Source of the DNA: a virus
Lineage: Duplodnaviria > Heunggongvirae > Uroviricota > Caudoviricetes
DNA length: 7,937 nucleotides
Strand: one strand, 5' to 3'
IMG/VR virus record: IMGVR_UViG_3300001919_000129
This document shows, piece after piece, positions 2 through 7,797 of this stretch. Positions within the stretch are counted from its first letter, which is position 1; the number at the start of each line of letters is the position of its first letter. Both the position numbers and the translations under genes were made by a program. The notes beneath the pieces were generated by a model. The model ran no database searches. It had not been told where the DNA came from and saw only the letters and a program-made list of their open reading frames with translations.

Positions 2-1300
2 ACGCTTCAGCTTATCAGGCAGAACAATGATATTGAGCGTTCAGGCGCTAACAATGTTGGGCTGACTGCTTTGCAAGGCCTTTCAGGTATTGCGGGGGTG
101 TTTCAGCAGGAAAAGCAGGCTCAGCGGCAGAAAGAATTTCAGCAGGCATACGCTAATGCTTATGCGTCTGGTGATCGCGGTGCTTTGCGTCAGTTGGCTA
201 CTCAATATCCAGACCAGATTGAATCCGTTCGTAAAGGCATGGGATTCATTGATGAAGATCAGCGTAATTCTATCGGCACCTTAGCGGCTGGCGCACGCCT
301 TGCGTCATCGTCTCCAGAAGCAATGCAATCATGGCTGCAAAACAACGCCAAGGAACTGACTCGCGTCGGTGTTGACCCCAACAGCGTTGCTCAGATGTAT
401 CAGCAGAATCCTTCAGGATTTGGTGAGTTTGTTGATCACCTTGGGATGGCTGCTCTTGGTCCGATTGATTACTTCAATGTTCAGGACAAGATGGCTGGTC
501 GTGAGATTGATCGCGGAAAACTTGCAGAGACAATCCGCAGCAATCAGGCTGGCGAGGCGCTAACAGCACGAGGCCAGAACATCACGATGCGCGGGCAGGA
601 CTTATCTGCTTCTACTGCGCGACGCGGGCAGGATTTGGCAATGCAGCGAGCGTCAACAAGAGGAACCGCTGGGAATGATGAGCGTACAGTTCAGTTATCA
701 GATGGCAGAACTGTAACGGTAGGCGGGAAGCTTCACGGCGCTGGGGCTAATGCGTTCTACGAAGGCATCGACAACGAGGGGAATATGGTTCGCGTTCCTG
801 CCAGTTCAATCGCAGCGCCTGCAACATCGTCTGCATCAGCACAAAACTATGCCATGAAGAAGGATATCGACGCGATCGCAAATGCAGACGCTTCTGCTCT
901 CGATTTCATGACAGGAATGACAGGCGGTGCAGGTAATCCAGCAATTGGTGCTGATGTTCGCAGCCGATTAACAGGAAAAGAGCAGCGCCAGTTATATAAC
1001 TCAGCACAACGTATTCAGGGCAGAATGCAGAATCAGGGTGTGGCGGCAGCAAGGGACATGGGTGCCAGTGGTATTAACACCGTTGCAGAAGCGAAGATGT
1101 ATTTTCAGGGGATGCCGCAGGTTGACTATTCAAGCCCGGAGGCTATGCAGCAGTCGATTCGTGAGATTCAGGAATACACCAACAATTACAACCAACAATA
1201 TAACGTTAATGTTGGTAAATCTCAGCGGCAGCAATCTCAACCTGCACAGGTATCACAGCCAGCAGCCAGCAGTAACTTTTCTTCACTATGGGGTGATTAA
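2..1300 (+). CDS. Virion ejection (internal) protein, P22 gp20-like by position; 5'-truncated by the window edge
   Basis: Reading frame is open from position 2 with no upstream stop, so the start at 71 in the ORF track is an internal TTG. Stop TAA at 1298-1300 overlaps the next start (TAATG). Assignment is by synteny, immediately upstream of a about 665-aa gp16-like gene and the tailspike. Protein is Q/A-rich with internal repeats. Confidence 0.6.
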
Positions 1301-3297
1301 TGGCTAAAGCATGGAAAGATGTTATCGCCTCTCCACAGTATCAGGCGTTAGCACCAGAACAAAAAGCGCAGGCTCAGGAGCAATACTTCAATGAAGTCGT
1401 TGCCCCGCAAGCCGGAGAAAATGCAGAGCAGGCTAAGCAAGCTTTCTATGCTGCCTATCCATTGCCATCTGTGCAGCCAGTGGAGACACAACAACCAGTA
1501 TCACAGCAACAACCACAGCAAAGTGGATTTATGTCGGATCTTGGTGAAGCCGTGAAAGAAACTGGTCGCGGACTGGTGCAGACTGGCGTGAACGTGGCAA
1601 ACATACCTGCATCAGTTGCCGATGCTGTAACAAGCGCGGCAGCTTGGGCTGGCGGTAAACTCGGCATTGGCGATGGTACATATCAACCAGCGCCACGAGT
1701 AACAACGCAGGGATTAGAGCAGGACTTTGGCCTTCAGCAAGGCGCGCTGACTCCACAAACTACAGAGGGCAGGGTATTTGCTGAAGCATTGCCTTACCTC
1801 ACTCCTGCTGGCGTTGAGAGAGCGGCAACACAGGCACCAACACTTGCTGGTCGAATTGCTCAGGGGGCAACTCGCCTTCTCGCTGAAAACGCAGTTGGAT
1901 CACTTGCTGCAAATAGTGCGAAAGATGATGCGGAAGCACTCGCCACCGATTTAGGCGTTGGTGTGCTGGCTGGCGGTGCTATTAACGCTGCCGGACGTGG
2001 ATTAGGTGCTGCTTATCGTGGCGTTCGTGGTTCTATTGCGCCAGAAGCGCAGCAGGCTATCAGATTTGCAGAGCGTGAAGGAGTTCCTCTGCACACCACA
2101 GACCTGTTACAACCAACTTCCCGCGTCGGAAAAATGGCGCAGACTACAGCAGAAAATATCCCTCTGGCTGGCACAAGCGGAATGAGAGCAACGCAACAGG
2201 AAGCGAGAAGCCAGTTGGTGCAGAGATTTGCTGATAAATTCGGCGAGTACGATCCGGCAGTTGTTATTGACAGCCTTAAAGCGAAAACATCAGGAATTCG
2301 TCGTGCTGCCGGTAATCGACTGGAGCAGGTTCAGAATGCTATGGCTGGAGTAAACATTCAGCCTGTGCGAGCAATTCAGCAGATTGATACTGAGATATCT
2401 AACCTGCAGAAGCTTGGTAAGGTCGCTGATAACGAGACGATTTCAAAACTTCAATCCTATCGTGATGAGCTTATTCGCAATGCTGGTCCTGATGGTCCGG
2501 TAAATCTGGATTTGAAGCAATTAAGCGATCTGCGCAGCCAGTTCAGAATGGACGTGAAGGGGGAACGACCAGTGCTACCAAACCGTTCCGATGCTGCCAT
2601 TCAGCGCGTTTACAAGGCAATGACCGACGATATCAATGGTGCCATTGGGCAGAATCTTGGCAACGATACTCTCCGTAAATATCAGCAGGCCAATGCCGTC
2701 TATGCTGACGAAGCAGCGAAACTAAAGAATACCAGGCTGAAGAATGTTCTCATGAAAGGCGATCTGACGCCGGAAGTTGTCAACAACATGCTATTCAGCA
2801 AGAACAAATCGGAAATTAAGACTCTGTATAACTCAGTTGGTCGTGTTGGCAGGGCGCAAATGCGCAATGGCATCATTGGAAAGGCGATGGAGAAATCAGG
2901 TGGTTCCCCTGACCAGTTCCTTCGACAGCTTAACATCCTGCAAAACCAGACTGGCATCACATTTAAAGGTCAGGATGCTGCTTATCTGAAAGGATTGAAA
3001 AACTACCTTCAATCCACGCAACAGGCAGCAAAAGCGGCAGTAACAACACCAACAGGGCAGCAAACCATCCCGTTCATTATCGGGTATGGGACGGCAATGA
3101 ACCCGGCGACAACTGGCGCAGCGGTAAGCTACGGACTTCTTACTCGCGCCTATGAGAGCGAGCCATTCAGAAATGCAATGCTCCGAATGGCAAACACACC
3201 ACGCGGATCGACAGCGTTTGAGAAAGCCATGCAGCAAGCGCAAAAAGCGATTAATGCACTGACGCAGGGTGCTAAGTCTGATTCGTTGTCAGAATAG
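1300..3297 (+). CDS. Virion ejection (internal) protein, P22 gp16-like by position and size (665 aa)
   Basis: Long uninterrupted ORF, ATG overlapping the upstream stop (TAATG), GGGGTG Shine-Dalgarno-like motif just upstream. Size and position match the last ejection-protein gene of P22-like phages. Has a Q/P-rich linker near the N-terminus. Not verified by search. Confidence 0.6.
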   Translation: MAKAWKDVIASPQYQALAPEQKAQAQEQYFNEVVAPQAGENAEQAKQAFYAAYPLPSVQPVETQQPVSQQQPQQSGFMSDLGEAVKETGRGLVQTGVNVANIPASVADAVTSAAAWAGGKLGIGDGTYQPAPRVTTQGLEQDFGLQQGALTPQTTEGRVFAEALPYLTPAGVERAATQAPTLAGRIAQGATRLLAENAVGSLAANSAKDDAEALATDLGVGVLAGGAINAAGRGLGAAYRGVRGSIAPEAQQAIRFAEREGVPLHTTDLLQPTSRVGKMAQTTAENIPLAGTSGMRATQQEARSQLVQRFADKFGEYDPAVVIDSLKAKTSGIRRAAGNRLEQVQNAMAGVNIQPVRAIQQIDTEISNLQKLGKVADNETISKLQSYRDELIRNAGPDGPVNLDLKQLSDLRSQFRMDVKGERPVLPNRSDAAIQRVYKAMTDDINGAIGQNLGNDTLRKYQQANAVYADEAAKLKNTRLKNVLMKGDLTPEVVNNMLFSKNKSEIKTLYNSVGRVGRAQMRNGIIGKAMEKSGGSPDQFLRQLNILQNQTGITFKGQDAAYLKGLKNYLQSTQQAAKAAVTTPTGQQTIPFIIGYGTAMNPATTGAAVSYGLLTRAYESEPFRNAMLRMANTPRGSTAFEKAMQQAQKAINALTQGAKSDSLSE

Positions 3298-3387: not shown

Positions 3388-3873
3388 TTATCTGATGTTA
3401 CTGCTACTGTTGCATGTTACCGTGTTTCCAAATCCTGAATTGCAGTTTGTATATGTGTCAACTCGTGTTGGGTAATGTTGAGTTATAACAGGCTGGCGCG
3501 CTTTTTGCTCGATCGCTTGCATTGTGTTTACAGCCTGATAATTCAATAAAGCCTGCTGGAATGCTTGGCTTTGTGCTATTTGTTGGGCTTGTTCTTGGCT
3601 TTGTAATTGAACATAAAGATTCTGAAGCTCAAGTCTTGCCTGTGCGTCACTTATCTTGCCTTCATTGACACCTTGCCCGAGCATCTTTGCAGCAAGGACA
3701 TACAGCTTAGGTGTTGGTGCTGATGCCATGCGTGAGTCGTTCTTCACACTGGCATCAAGGCAATTAGCCATATCGCTAAGCTTTTGATAGCGTTGTTCGC
3801 AACTTGCTTGATAGTCACTTACTTTTGCGCATCCAACCAGCAGAAGCGGGATAATTAACAGTGATTTTTTCAT
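3388..3873 (-). CDS. Predicted lipoprotein (161 aa), function unknown, in the sieA-equivalent slot
   Basis: Start chosen at ATG 3873 (MKKSLLIIPLLLVGC...) because AAGGAG lies about 10 nt upstream; the ORF-track start at 3909 adds 12 residues before the signal peptide and has no SD. N-terminus is a classic signal peptide ending in a lipobox LVGC, with Ala at +2 (not an inner-membrane retention residue). Mature part has a Q-rich helical-looking segment and four further Cys. Sits 70 bp downstream of mnt on the same strand. Confidence 0.7.
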   Translation of the reverse strand: MKKSLLIIPLLLVGCAKVSDYQASCEQRYQKLSDMANCLDASVKNDSRMASAPTPKLYVLAAKMLGQGVNEGKISDAQARLELQNLYVQLQSQEQAQQIAQSQAFQQALLNYQAVNTMQAIEQKARQPVITQHYPTRVDTYTNCNSGFGNTVTCNSSSNIR

Positions 3874-3943: not shown

Positions 3944-4210
3944 CTATGTTTCCTTTTTATTATTGCTATACATGGTCTTAAGCGTTTCAAAAACCATTTT
4001 CTTAACCATATCAGATTGTTGTTCTGCCATACGCTCTGCATCGTCAATGTAAACGGATGCAGAGCTTTGTTTAGCCAACGATTCTTCAATCGCTGCAATT
4101 ATCTCTGAGTTCAGCGATCTGTTATTCATCTTCGCACGCTGCTTAATTTTCGCGTGGAGTTCATGCGGAAGTCTCAAGTGAAACTGCGCCTCGTCGTATT
4201 TACTGTACAT
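3944..4210 (-). CDS. mnt: Mnt-family ribbon-helix-helix transcriptional repressor (88 aa)
   Basis: Aligns along its full length with P22 Mnt as I recall it: N-terminal RHH strand QFHLRLP versus HFNFRMP, the RSLNSEI helix versus RSMNSEL, and C-terminal DDAERMAEQQSDMVKKMVFETLKTMY versus NDAERLADEQSELVKKMVFDTLKDLY. Start set at ATG 4210 (MYSKYDE...) to match the P22 Mnt N-terminus; an in-frame ATG at 4243 is an alternative. Confidence 0.85.
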   Translation of the reverse strand: MYSKYDEAQFHLRLPHELHAKIKQRAKMNNRSLNSEIIAAIEESLAKQSSASVYIDDAERMAEQQSDMVKKMVFETLKTMYSNNKKET

Positions 4211-4331
4211 CCTTGATGCCTCACCAGTTGGGTGGAATGGCATCGTAACCTACTGGATAAATACTCAATAGTACCATTTCGGTATGCAATCACATCATGG
4301 TTGCATCATATCATTCGTCTGGAGTAATGAA
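4211..4331. promoter_or_regulatory. Divergent control region between mnt (leftward) and tailspike (rightward); candidate operator and promoters
   Basis: AT-rich 120-bp spacer between divergent genes. Inverted repeat ATGCAA (4284-4289) / TTGCAT (4301-4306); short palindrome TACTCAATAGTA (4262-4273); TATCAT at 4309-4314; GGAG SD at 4321-4324 for the tailspike. Exact -35/-10 elements could not be fixed by eye. Confidence 0.4.
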
Positions 4332-6515
4332 ATGTCAGATATCACCGCAAATGTTGTGGTAAGCATGCCTTCGCAACTCTTCACTATGGCGCGTTCTTTT
4401 AAAGCGGTTGCCAATGGCAAAATTTATATCGGAAAAATTGACACTGACCCGGTAAATCCAGAAAACCAGATCCAGGTTTATGTGGAGAACGAAGATGGCT
4501 CTCATGTTCCTGTTTCGCAACCAATCATCATTAACGCTGCCGGATATCCGGTATATAACGGACAGATTGCCAAATTCGTTACCGTGCAAGGCCATTCTAT
4601 GGCTGTTTATGATGCATATGGTGCTCAGCAATTCTATTTCCCTAATGTGCTGAAGTATGATCCAGACCAATTTAAGAACCAATTGCTTATACTAGATGAA
4701 ACAGCACAGGATTTTAATCAGACAAAACCTTACATTATTCAAAGCGTTTCTCAGTTGCTGCAGAAAGACTTTACTGGTATTGAAAAAATAACAGTTTTCA
4801 CATACATGAACCAGCACGGAATAAAAGTGAAATCTGAATGGTATGTTGGATTAGAGAAGATAGATAATACTTATTCACTCAATCTTCCAAATGGTTATTT
4901 TGCTAATTTAATCCTTACATCTGAGATGGACTATTCAGAGTTTGGCTTTGGAAGTTCAGACCCGGAAAAAAATTCCGCAGCGATTGCCGAGGCTTGTAGA
5001 GTTGCTCGCGCAAATCAGATTATGAGCAAACTCACATTCCCGTCAGGAGTTTACTTTTCTGATAAGTTTGATTTAGATGTTGATCGCCGTGGTTTTATTT
5101 TTTCAGGAGCTGGAAATGACGCAACAATAATCATGTCAACGTCATCTAACATATCGATGCACCATGTGGGAATTGATCCTCGCGACAGGAGCAGAGATCG
5201 TCTCCACTGGCACCAAACAGTTGAAGGTTTCACCGTAAATGGAAACATTTCTAATAATGGCGCTAGTGCATCAGCAAGAGCCGTATACACAGCTCCTTAT
5301 GCTACTATTAGAAATAAATCAATTGATCACCGCATCAGTAATTATGATCTTTTACATCTGGTTATTAATTGGCATGGTCATTCGCAAGGAACAACAAATG
5401 GCTCCACCAGAACTAAGTATGGTGTTCGCGTTAGAAATAACTCTATCAAATTAATGGGTTACATTGGGAGCAGCGCTAACAATCAGTGTACTTTGTCTAT
5501 TGAAGGTATGAGCACAACCCTGACATCTACAGCATATGTAAATGACAACACTGTTACTGTTGCTGATGCTTCTGGTTTTGATACGTTGTTTGAAATTGCA
5601 TTCACCAATTCAACTGGAGGTGTAGAGACACGTCGTATCACAGCAATCTCGGGAAACGTTATAACACTTGATAGACCAATGACGTCTGAGTTCCAGTCTG
5701 GGACTAAGGTTGAAGTTCCCATTATTGGGACGTCAGTAATTTCAAGTACAATTGAAACTGGTGAGATAAGAATTGGTGACAGTCAGGCAACTTATATCGC
5801 AGGAAACTACAGCGAAGAGGCAAAGATGTATATAACAAAATACGTTAGAGCTTTGACTGTCACTGGAACATCAACAGCAGAGGCTTCACCGGCTATTACA
5901 ATTGAAGTAGACAGGCGTTCATCTATAAAAATTGAAGGAAATGACACTACGTTTTCTATCTCGGTAAACATAACAGACCGTTCTGGAAGTGTTGGTGAAC
6001 GCATTGACCTATACAATGCGCCTAAGCTGGATATTAAAATGAACACTCGTGCTCAAAATTCAATTATCTTGAATGGGGTATATGGATTCAGCAGCCTTCG
6101 TATTGAAAAGACGTTCGATTCTGTTTCTCAGGATGAAAGATTTAACCGGATGACTTTCTCTGGCTTCAATCACGTTGCACCTGCTGGAGGTTCAGTCACT
6201 GAAGTTATGAAATTTTTTCAGGATGCTACACAGTTCGGGTTTGATGGTTACACGTTTGACCTGGATATTACGTGCAGGAGGGATGGTGCTTCTGCAGCTG
6301 TTACGCCTGGCATACTGAAGCGATACGGGACATCATCAGCTGCACCAGTTGCACAAAATTCTGCTCCAGTAAGTCTTTTTTCAGACTTTAATGAGATAAA
6401 TGGCTATAATGTCTTTATTGGCGCATCTGGTAATAGAGGTACAGTGCAAGTAAGGCCAAATCCAACATCACAAATAAAATCAACTATAAATGGCACTGTT
6501 ACTTCCATAATATAG
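4332..6515 (+). CDS. Tailspike protein (727 aa): P22 gp9-type N-terminal head-binding domain fused to a divergent receptor-binding domain
   Basis: Start at ATG 4332 ([10 protein letters not shown]...) with GGAG 7 nt upstream; the ORF-track start at 4284 is an in-frame upstream ATG inside the control region. Residues 1 to about 114 (through [10 protein letters not shown]) match the P22 gp9 N-terminal domain nearly residue for residue from memory. Downstream sequence is unrelated to P22 gp9 and visibly more AT-rich. Confidence 0.9.
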
Positions 6516-6595: not shown

Positions 6596-6617
6596 AAGGT
6601 GGATCACTCCACCTTTT
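6596..6617 (+). terminator. Candidate intrinsic terminator for the tailspike gene, overlapping the int stop codon
   Basis: Perfect 8-bp stem AAGGTGGA (6596-6603) / TCCACCTT (6608-6615) with 4-nt loop TCAC, followed by TT; the U-tract is short, so strength is uncertain. The complement of the int stop (6604-6606) lies in the loop. Confidence 0.3.
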
Positions 6618-7761
6618 CATCAAGCCAGTCCGCCCACCACTGCATCATTTCTCTGCGCTTATCGAGATACTGAGCATGGTTGTAAATCCCGCGCACAGAT
6701 CCGCCGTTGGCATGTGCCAGTTGCACTTCAATAGCATCAGCAGGCCATTCGTGCTCGTTCATAATCGTGCTGAATTCATGCCTGAATCCGTGACCGCTTT
6801 CCAGCCCTTCATAGCCAATTTGTTTGATCACAAGCAATACCGCGTTCTCGCAGATTGGCTTCTTCTTATCGTTGCGCCCGGCAAAAACAAACTCTGACAC
6901 TGGTTTAGTGATTGAGCTTAGCGTAGTGAGAAGTTCAATCACCTGGTCTGACATCGGTACTACATGAATCTTGCGGCCCTTCATCACACTGGCGTCGATG
7001 GTGATAATCCTGTTTTCAAAATCGACGTTCTTCCATAGCATGGAACGAAGCTCTTTTGTTCTGAGGGCTGTGTAGCGTAAAACTTTAGTCGCAATAAGCG
7101 ATACGATACTTCCTGAAAATGTTGCCAGTGCTTTATTGAATGCTGGGATCTGGTCGGCAGGTAAAAACGGGAAGTTCTTCTTGCGGTATCCCTTCATGGC
7201 GTCAGCAAGGTCAGGTGCCGGGTTATATTTAGCCCTACCGGTGACAATAGCGTAACGGAAAACCTCGCCGCATCTTCTGCGTGCTTTGTTGGCTCGTTCC
7301 ATTGCACCGCGATCTTCAAATCTGCGGATTACTTCCAGCAGTTGCATCGGCTCAATATCCTGAATTTCAAGGCCGCCGATGATAGGTAAAATGTCGTCAT
7401 CAAACATTTTTGCAAGTTCAGTTGCATAGCCTACTGACCAGACTTGCTTCTTGTGCTCGTACCATTCCTTGTAAATCGCACTAAATGAATTGTTGTTAGA
7501 CGAAGCCTTTTTCGCCTTTACCGGATCGATGCCAACCGAGATGTCTTTCCTCGCAGTCCATGCTTTATCCCTTGCCTCCTGCAAAGTCATAAGCGGATAT
7601 TTTCCGACGGTCAGGATTTTCTCCTTACCGTCAATCTTGTAGCGAAGCTGCCATACCTTTTTCCCGGATACAGGGACATAAAGGTACAGGCCATTACCAT
7701 CGAGAAGGCGATATGGTTTTTCTTTCGGCTTTGCTGCTTCAATCTGCTTAACGGTGAGCAT
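6604..7761 (-). CDS. intS: Tyrosine recombinase, P4/IntS-type phage integrase (385 aa)
   Basis: N-terminus MLTVKQIEAAKPKEKPYRLLDGNGLYLYV is the typical arm-binding (DUF4102-like) start of P4-family integrases, and the C-terminus carries catalytic-domain hallmarks (HGFRHEF..., VQLAHANGGSVRGIYNHAQY). Start set at ATG 7761; the ORF-track start at 7797 is a GTG that would fall at or upstream of the predicted transcript start. The intS symbol is assigned by family, size and tRNA adjacency, not by search. Confidence 0.88.
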   Translation of the reverse strand: MLTVKQIEAAKPKEKPYRLLDGNGLYLYVPVSGKKVWQLRYKIDGKEKILTVGKYPLMTLQEARDKAWTARKDISVGIDPVKAKKASSNNNSFSAIYKEWYEHKKQVWSVGYATELAKMFDDDILPIIGGLEIQDIEPMQLLEVIRRFEDRGAMERANKARRRCGEVFRYAIVTGRAKYNPAPDLADAMKGYRKKNFPFLPADQIPAFNKALATFSGSIVSLIATKVLRYTALRTKELRSMLWKNVDFENRIITIDASVMKGRKIHVVPMSDQVIELLTTLSSITKPVSEFVFAGRNDKKKPICENAVLLVIKQIGYEGLESGHGFRHEFSTIMNEHEWPADAIEVQLAHANGGSVRGIYNHAQYLDKRREMMQWWADWLDEKVE

Positions 7762-7797
7762 GGGTAAAAATCCGGTGGGTAAAATTATTTTATCCAC

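Follow-up and report, generated by a model that had tools for sequence, protein, structure and literature searches.

A predicted operator and a probable third specificity class for the orphan Mnt-family repressors found beside the tailspike gene of P22-like prophages

What does a Mnt repressor do in a prophage that has neither arc nor ant? The question is raised by the 7,937-nt stretch of viral DNA analyzed here, which we call the window. It is the right end of a P22-like (Lederbergvirus-type) prophage (Table 1), and mnt is the only immI gene between its gene 16 homologue and its tailspike gene. The original prediction, made from the letters of this DNA, described an orphan mnt with an altered DNA-recognition strand and offered three possible roles: autoregulation of an mnt-lipoprotein operon, control of a tailspike promoter, or repression in trans of the Pant promoter of an incoming phage. 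We favor, with a probability of about 0.6, a reading in which a functional Mnt tetramer, representing a third specificity class, is the self-regulating core that survives from immI and binds a single dyad at its own promoter, Pmnt. The sequence comparisons themselves show family membership, an intact protein architecture, a unique and conserved dyad, conservation of Pmnt, decay of Pant, and the absence of arc and ant.

The orphan status of the gene, with a gap of about 120 bp to the tailspike gene, stands as first described. The tailspike protein begins with MSDITANVV at ATG 4332, preceded by the Shine-Dalgarno sequence CTGGAG at 4319-4324, so that the gap between mnt and tailspike spans 4211-4331, or 121 bp. 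Neither arc nor ant is present in this gap or elsewhere in the window, and no Arc or Ant homologue lies within 3 kb in the 83 loci of the window's class described below. The same holds for the entire length of two complete relatives, phage Sf101 and the prophage of E. coli B7A, where an arc/ant module elsewhere under the same operator is likewise absent and the operator occurs once in each. No tRNA gene was found in the window, including its end. In related E. coli genomes (L005, L244) the prophage site is a tRNA-Arg gene (argW) between torI and yfdC, the CPS-53/KplE1 site. Much of the prophage has been deleted in strain ZY22049, yet mnt, the lipoprotein gene and the tailspike gene are retained.

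Table 1. Features of the window, with positions numbered from its first nucleotide
Feature	Position	Strand	Remarks
gp20-like injection protein	71-1300	+	
gp16-like protein	1300-3297	+	
Lipoprotein gene	3388-3873	-	lipobox LLVGC (MKKSLLIIPLLLVGC)
mnt gene	3944-4210	-	88 aa plus stop; Mnt-family ribbon-helix-helix repressor, QFHLRLP class
C-terminal tetramerization helix DDAERMAEQQSDMVKKMVFETLK	3977-4045	-	PF11423, PDB 1QEY
Recognition beta-strand codons Q9-F10-H11-L12-R13-L14-P15	4166-4186	-	from alignment
N-terminal arm MYSKYDEA	4187-4210	-	replaces the MARDDP/MGRDDP arm of the other two classes
Shine-Dalgarno GAGG	4219-4222	-	8 nt before ATG 4210; homologous to P22 mnt GGAG
Decayed Pant remnant, ATGGCA, 17 bp, AATACT	4237-4265	+	aligns with P22 TTGACA-17-TATATT
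Pmnt homologue	4242-4268	-	-35 TTGAGT (4263-4268), 15-bp spacer, -10 TACGAT (4242-4247)
Predicted Mnt operator AGTACCATTTCGGTATG	4270-4286		aligned position of P22 Omnt (AGGTCCACGGTGGACCT)
Inverted repeat/hairpin ATGCAATCA / TGGTTGCAT, 9 bp	4284-4306	+	tailspike leader, directly right of the operator
Tailspike gene	4332-6515	+	P22-type head-binding domain, Pfam Head_binding PF09008, E=2e-67
IntS-type integrase	6604-7797	-	

This arrangement is common in E. coli and Shigella prophages. The module of mnt followed by tailspike occurs in phages Sf101, IME10, Gally, vB_EcoP-720R6 and VSe13, and in at least 105 of 5,426 complete E. coli genomes when at least 80% of a 1.4-kb query must be covered. 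The gene is an ordinary representative of a known family, and its arrangement was described before. Villafane 2008 (PMC2629481) recognized a variable "ant moron" between genes 16 and 9, listed ST64T, ST104 and Para1 as carrying mnt only, and drew the E. coli B7A prophage in figure 3; that prophage carries exactly the window's module. The phage L genome paper (Zaworski 2020) described an mnt-only "ant moron" as well. The novelty implied for the arrangement in the original prediction was therefore overstated. The Sf101 paper makes no mention of an mnt gene. Mnt homologues are widely mislabelled as "partition protein ATPase" or "putative chromosome segregation ATPase", for example in Sf101 (L002, 2974-3267), in the RefSeq entry for P22 mnt (L004, 3520-3771), and in PHROGs 795 and 2685. 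What is new here is a predicted cognate operator together with a clean three-class specificity pattern, a modest addition that provides a concrete operator prediction for a common and often misannotated prophage repressor.

The protein itself (translated from the minus strand of 3944-4210 as MYSKYDEAQFHLRLPHELH...DDAERMAEQQSDMVKKMVFETLKTMYSNNKKET) belongs to the Mnt family, as the original prediction held, and it has the tetramerization helix. All four profiles and structures agree on this: Arc (PF03869, E=1.1e-14), Repressor_Mnt (PF11423, E=3.9e-12), PDB 1MNT (E=5.7e-19, residues 6-78 of the 88-aa protein) and PDB 1QEY, the Mnt tetramerization domain (E=1.2e-6, residues 56-83). A ribbon-helix-helix domain with the x-F-x-x-R-x-P beta-strand is present at the N-terminus, and by homology the protein is expected to form a tetramer from two ribbon-helix-helix dimers joined via the C-terminal helix. 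An Arc repressor identity can be ruled out, as this is an 88-aa protein with the Mnt C-terminal domain rather than a dimer-only protein of about 53 aa. A longer ORF of 99 aa, starting at ATG 4243, was considered as an alternative gene model; the phage L/Gally class does not maintain its frame, and its start would lie upstream of the predicted transcription start. The loss of that frame, the PGAP gene call of 88 aa and the GAGG Shine-Dalgarno sequence make the 88-aa model (3944-4210) the better one. The Sf101 annotation (L002, 2974-3267) is an N-terminally extended ORF that matches the 99-aa form of the window.

In a MAFFT alignment, the recognition strand QFHLRLP stands opposite HFNFRMP of P22 Mnt and QFNLRWP of Arc, exactly as the original prediction had placed it, and it does not match P22 Mnt. 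Residues Q9, H11 and R13 align with the base-contacting positions of both repressors. These contacts are made by Gln9, Asn11 and Arg13 in Arc and by His6, Asn8 and Arg10 in Mnt, as established in work from the Sauer laboratory. Of the three positions that face outward, two are changed from P22 Mnt (H to Q and N to H), which bears out the earlier claim that two base-contacting positions had changed, and one of three differs from Arc (N to H).

To place this strand among its relatives, we compared 235 mnt loci from viral contigs and species-representative genomes and tabulated the strand, the neighboring genes and the upstream DNA of each. The genome-contig scan contributed 8 loci, and three Pseudomonas matches were short Arc-like proteins rather than Mnt. 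The P22 class (n=82) combines the strand HFNFRMP with the arm MARDDP (82/82) and the operator GGTCCAC-N-GTGGACC (75/82), and almost always has arc/ant nearby. The phage L/Gally class (n=66), into which phages L and ST160 fall, combines QFNLRLP with MGRDDP (66/66) and AGACCAC-N-GTGGTCT (65/66), and never has arc/ant nearby. The window class (n=83), also never accompanied by arc/ant, combines QFHLRLP (with T or S found at the last position as well) with the arm MYSKYDEA (82/83; the remaining locus has MVYSKYDEA) and the dyad TACC-N5-GGTA (82/83). Strand, N-terminal arm and operator thus vary jointly, although the three classes are three lineages, so that this covariation amounts to three data points and not to a statistical sample. 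In all three classes, 66-71 nt separate the center of the operator from the mnt ATG. The distance to the tailspike start is 130-140 or about 420 bp in the L class and typically about 121 bp in the window class.

The pattern of operator changes is ordered. In both orphan classes, the outer bases of the half-sites depart from P22 symmetrically. The L class shows a variable base (A, G, T or C) at the center of the operator, between constant half-sites. In the window class the inner bases are asymmetric, and this change coincides with the different N-terminal arm: MYSKYDEA and the inner operator bases change together. Since a different dyad occupies the Omnt position and goes with the QFHLRLP strand in 82 of 83 loci, the specificity of the window protein very probably differs from that of P22 Mnt, in agreement with what was first proposed. 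The three naturally occurring sets of Mnt and operator offer a test case for DNA reading by a beta-sheet, to be set beside the Arc/Mnt specificity swaps. Phage CUS-3 (L241, 2211-2740) has ant without arc, and its mnt is present as a tandem pair of paralogues whose strands read QVNLRLP and HFNFRMP; upstream of its first paralogue, a direct repeat (ATGCGTACC, two copies) is found where the dyad would be expected.

Positions 4211-4290 of the window are homologous, by DNA alignment, to the region of P22 that comprises mnt, Pmnt/Pant and Omnt. Within the dyad found at the Omnt position, the half-sites are GTACC (4271-4275) and GGTAT (4281-4285), and the center, at 4278, is 68 nt from the mnt ATG and at about -43 relative to the predicted start of Pmnt. 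The motif TACC-N5-GGTA is present as a single copy in the window, where 0.125 would be expected by chance, and as one copy each in the whole Sf101 genome and the whole B7A prophage. Near-matches in those two sequences occur at or below the level of chance, and a second operator was not found in either. The Serratia marcescens relative is included among the loci that keep the dyad. On these grounds the dyad is most likely the site bound by this Mnt.

A search of 2.9 million viral contigs recovered the exact 17-mer of the operator in 118 stretches. We examined 80 of these, and in 77 of 78 evaluable matches the 17-mer adjoins a window-class mnt; the lone outlier (L279) is the start of an unrelated gene and a chance match. 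These counts bear directly on the proposal that resident Mnt acts in trans, repressing the Pant of superinfecting P22-like phages and so sparing the resident prophage Ant-mediated induction. The idea is conceptually attractive for a prophage that itself has no ant, and P22 Mnt is made in lysogens. The proposed target is nevertheless missing from the sample: the 17-mer lies beside ant in none of the 78 evaluable viral-contig matches, the loci of the QFH and QFN classes have no arc/ant nearby, and those phages in the sample that do bear ant use the P22-type operator. Repression in trans of an incoming Pant thus finds no support, and we judge it very unlikely to be what this protein does.

The promoters point instead to the gene's own expression. 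The leftward promoter aligns with the annotated Pmnt of P22 and its transcript is predicted to start near 4235. The operator abuts the -35 of this promoter. Upstream sequences of the window class fall into 33 distinct haplotypes; all of them carry the -10 TACGAT unchanged and the TTG of the -35, and the operator is almost unchanged among them. In a position weight matrix (PWM) scan for which P22 served as the control, Pant (16.7 bits) and Pmnt (14.3 bits) of P22 were the top two matches, and in Gally (11.7 bits) and VSe13 (9.2 bits) the Pmnt homologue alone stands out. The Pmnt of the window scores 8.2 bits, about equal to one non-homologous match and near the background median of 7.6. This modest score and the 15-bp spacer suggest that it may be weak. 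Compared with P22 and VSe13, 2 bp are deleted from the Pmnt spacer of the window class (4248-4262). A length of 15 bp is unusually short for sigma-70, and the VSe13-like and Serratia relatives keep 17 bp.

The rightward promoter has fared differently. The Pant-equivalent of the window scores 6.8 bits, below the background median of 7.6 and against 16.7 for P22 Pant. Its -10 has not been retained by VSe13-like or Gally-like loci, and the element is missing from the other orphan haplotypes. Nor does the intergenic alignment of the window show conservation of the Arc operator sequence. Neither a simple consensus scan nor the PWM scan with its P22 control found a rightward tailspike promoter above background, and a Mnt-controlled rightward promoter for the tailspike gene was rejected as the main role for want of such a candidate. 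The suggestion that Mnt controls a tailspike promoter is accordingly unsupported in its original form, with the Pant-equivalent below background and not conserved across the orphan classes. As only Pmnt is conserved and the operator abuts its -35, autoregulation fits best of the three roles that had been offered.

The other half of that role, an mnt-lipoprotein operon, holds only in part. The lipoprotein gene begins 70 nt downstream of mnt and has its own Shine-Dalgarno sequence, AAGGAG. No terminator-like site was found between the two genes, which makes co-transcription from Pmnt likely where both are present. The lipoprotein is found in only about half of the window-class loci, however, and is hence an optional cargo; an obligate operon is wrong. 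It belongs to PHROG 6067, to which no function is assigned there, and it has no Pfam match. It is a candidate lysogen-expressed moron, possibly with a role in superinfection exclusion. The lipoprotein gene occupies the slot of P22 sieA, and it also adjoins some mnt genes of the Gally and P22 classes.

It is also conceivable that Mnt governs the tailspike gene by another route. Bound at its operator about 46 bp upstream of the tailspike start codon, it might control tailspike expression either by repressing a weak promoter derived from Pant or by acting, together with convergent transcription from Pmnt, as a roadblock to read-through; the tailspike would then be off in lysogens, or its dose would be tuned during lytic growth. 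The geometry lends itself to this idea, as the position of the operator is invariably between late operon and tailspike gene, 46-60 bp before the tailspike start, mnt and its operator stay beside the tailspike gene even where there is no cargo gene at all, and the start site predicted for the window's ATGGCA-17-AATACT falls on the operator. Villafane 2008 (PMC2629481) also speculated that Mnt and Arc affect read-through from the late operon into the tailspike gene. The P22-like phages Sf6, APSE-1 and HK620, however, have no mnt according to the same source (PMC2629481), and they evidently do without it. The rightward promoter scores below background, and VSe13-like and Gally-like loci have not kept it. 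Inserts of 300-600 bp or more separate operator and tailspike in several loci, and the DNA on the right-hand side of the operator has been exchanged freely. On balance, we regard control of the tailspike gene as unlikely.

Inserts of at least 550 bp between operator and tailspike are found in loci L035, L036, L043, L059, L085 and L046. In E. coli M160133 (H41), an HNH endonuclease gene is annotated inside the matched stretch, and in Kapi1 an HNH endonuclease gene directly precedes the tailspike gene. We would give a similarly low standing to an extension of the same idea, in which Mnt and its operator form a tailspike gate linked to lysogeny and the HFN, QFN and QFH classes prevent cross-regulation among co-resident P22-like prophages. 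If this were true, bound Mnt and the opposing transcription from Pmnt would set whether the tailspike is made, and how much of it.

The tailspike leader contains the hairpin that adjoins the operator on its right. In 95.6% of cells its pairing is intact; the variants include one compensatory pair (in Escherichia sp. E1V33, L086) and four wobble-to-Watson-Crick changes, in which U.G becomes C-G or U-A. This covariation is statistically weak (14/500 shuffles), and folding energies of the mnt leader and the tailspike leader, expressed as z-scores, were not significant. P22 and the L class have another hairpin (CCGTAGCC..GCTGCGG) at the same place, which may be the "boundary sequence" annotated in CUS-3.

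A more skeptical account would hold that the locus is a non-functional relic, a recently stranded fragment of immI kept only because it is linked to other genes and shared by recent descent. For the mnt of phage L, the genome paper (Zaworski 2020) named this as a possibility. The Pmnt spacer of 15 bp in the window could be read as decay, and so could the pairwise dN/dS of the window class, which at 0.33 (36 distinct alleles) is higher than the 0.13 found in each of the other two classes. The R13I alleles of two IMG/VR loci (L042 and L046) add to this case; their strand reads QFHLILP, the otherwise invariant arginine is lost, and these are probably dead alleles with an inactivated protein. A dN/dS of 0.33 nevertheless indicates purifying selection, somewhat relaxed. 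The ORF is intact in more than 80 loci despite mosaic flanks (the C-terminus of gp16 has 34% or 99% identity, and the head domain of the tailspike 53-100%), whether the lipoprotein is present or absent. The dyad and the -10 are kept in the Serratia relative, although its protein is only 62% identical. The changes relative to P22 are symmetric in both half-sites, and in the L class the central operator base is free to vary while the half-sites are fixed. Against this evidence a relic seems quite improbable.

The boundaries of the retained block lead back to the reading that we favor. The DNA to the right of the operator has been replaced outright in VSe13, in loci L032, L051 and L078, and in the Serratia locus L087, which places a mosaic junction just right of the operator. 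Where this right-hand DNA is replaced, the block from mnt to the operator stays whole, Serratia included. Judged by these sequence comparisons, the conserved unit is mnt, Pmnt and the operator. In Serratia marcescens (L087, 783-3431), the Mnt relative, with 62% identity and the same operator, is followed by two convergent antirepressor-like genes with ORF6N and Bro-N domains, which in turn diverge from a further ribbon-helix-helix-like ORF. At the equivalent place in VSe13 lies a 96-aa fragment annotated as "antirepressor". There are hints in these two loci that ant-like genes formerly lay downstream of window-class mnt.

We propose the following course of events for the self-regulating repressor. 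An immI of the P22 type would have lost arc, ant and sar, and its rightward Pant would have decayed, leaving mnt, Pmnt and the operator. Derivation from such a fuller immI, like DNA binding, the sign of the regulation and co-transcription of the lipoprotein gene, is what we infer from the arrangement of the locus. Each prophage genome would offer Mnt a single binding site, the dyad AGTACCATTTCGGTATG at 4270-4286. Transcription from Pmnt in the lysogen would cover mnt, together with the downstream lipoprotein gene where it is present, and Mnt would feed back on its own Pmnt. The tailspike would be made by read-through from the late operon, with no local promoter of its own. Pure autoregulation does not explain why a repressor that targets only itself persists, above all where there is no cargo, as in roughly half of the loci. 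Our findings sharpen the question raised for phage L, namely why P22-like phages retain mnt after the loss of ant.

Comparison with known systems places this repressor closest to those of P22 and its relatives. P22 Mnt (immI; 1MNT, 1QEY) has the same two-domain architecture and is 47% identical to the window protein; its gene occupies the same slot, between the gene 16 homologue and the tailspike gene, in the same leftward orientation, with a homologous Pmnt and Shine-Dalgarno sequence and a dyad 66 nt from the start codon as against 68 in the window. P22 Mnt differs in strand, arm and operator (HFNFRMP, MARDDP and GGTCCAC-N-GTGGACC, against QFHLRLP, MYSKYDEA and TACC-N5-GGTA) and in the Pmnt spacer (17 bp, against 15 bp). 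Compared with the complete immI of P22 (mnt-arc-ant-sar), the window lacks arc, ant, sar and the Arc operator, and its Pant is decayed, whereas the Pant of P22 is strong, rightward and overlapped by Omnt, with the Arc operator between its hexamers. P22 Arc (1PAR, 1ARR) shares with the window protein the ribbon-helix-helix fold and, within the strand, the first residue (Gln) and the Arg (QFNLRWP, against QFHLRLP). Arc is, however, a 53-aa dimer without the tetramerization helix that the window protein has, and it binds TAGA boxes between the -35 and -10 of Pant, an operator that the window lacks. The orphan Mnt proteins of L, ST64T, ST104, ST160 and Gally have the same layout as the window, with mnt, Pmnt, a dyad operator and the tailspike gene, and they too have no arc/ant and a decayed Pant. 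They differ from the window in strand (QFNLRLP), operator (AGACCAC-N-GTGGTCT) and arm (MGRDDP), with about 50-58% protein identity and other cargo genes.
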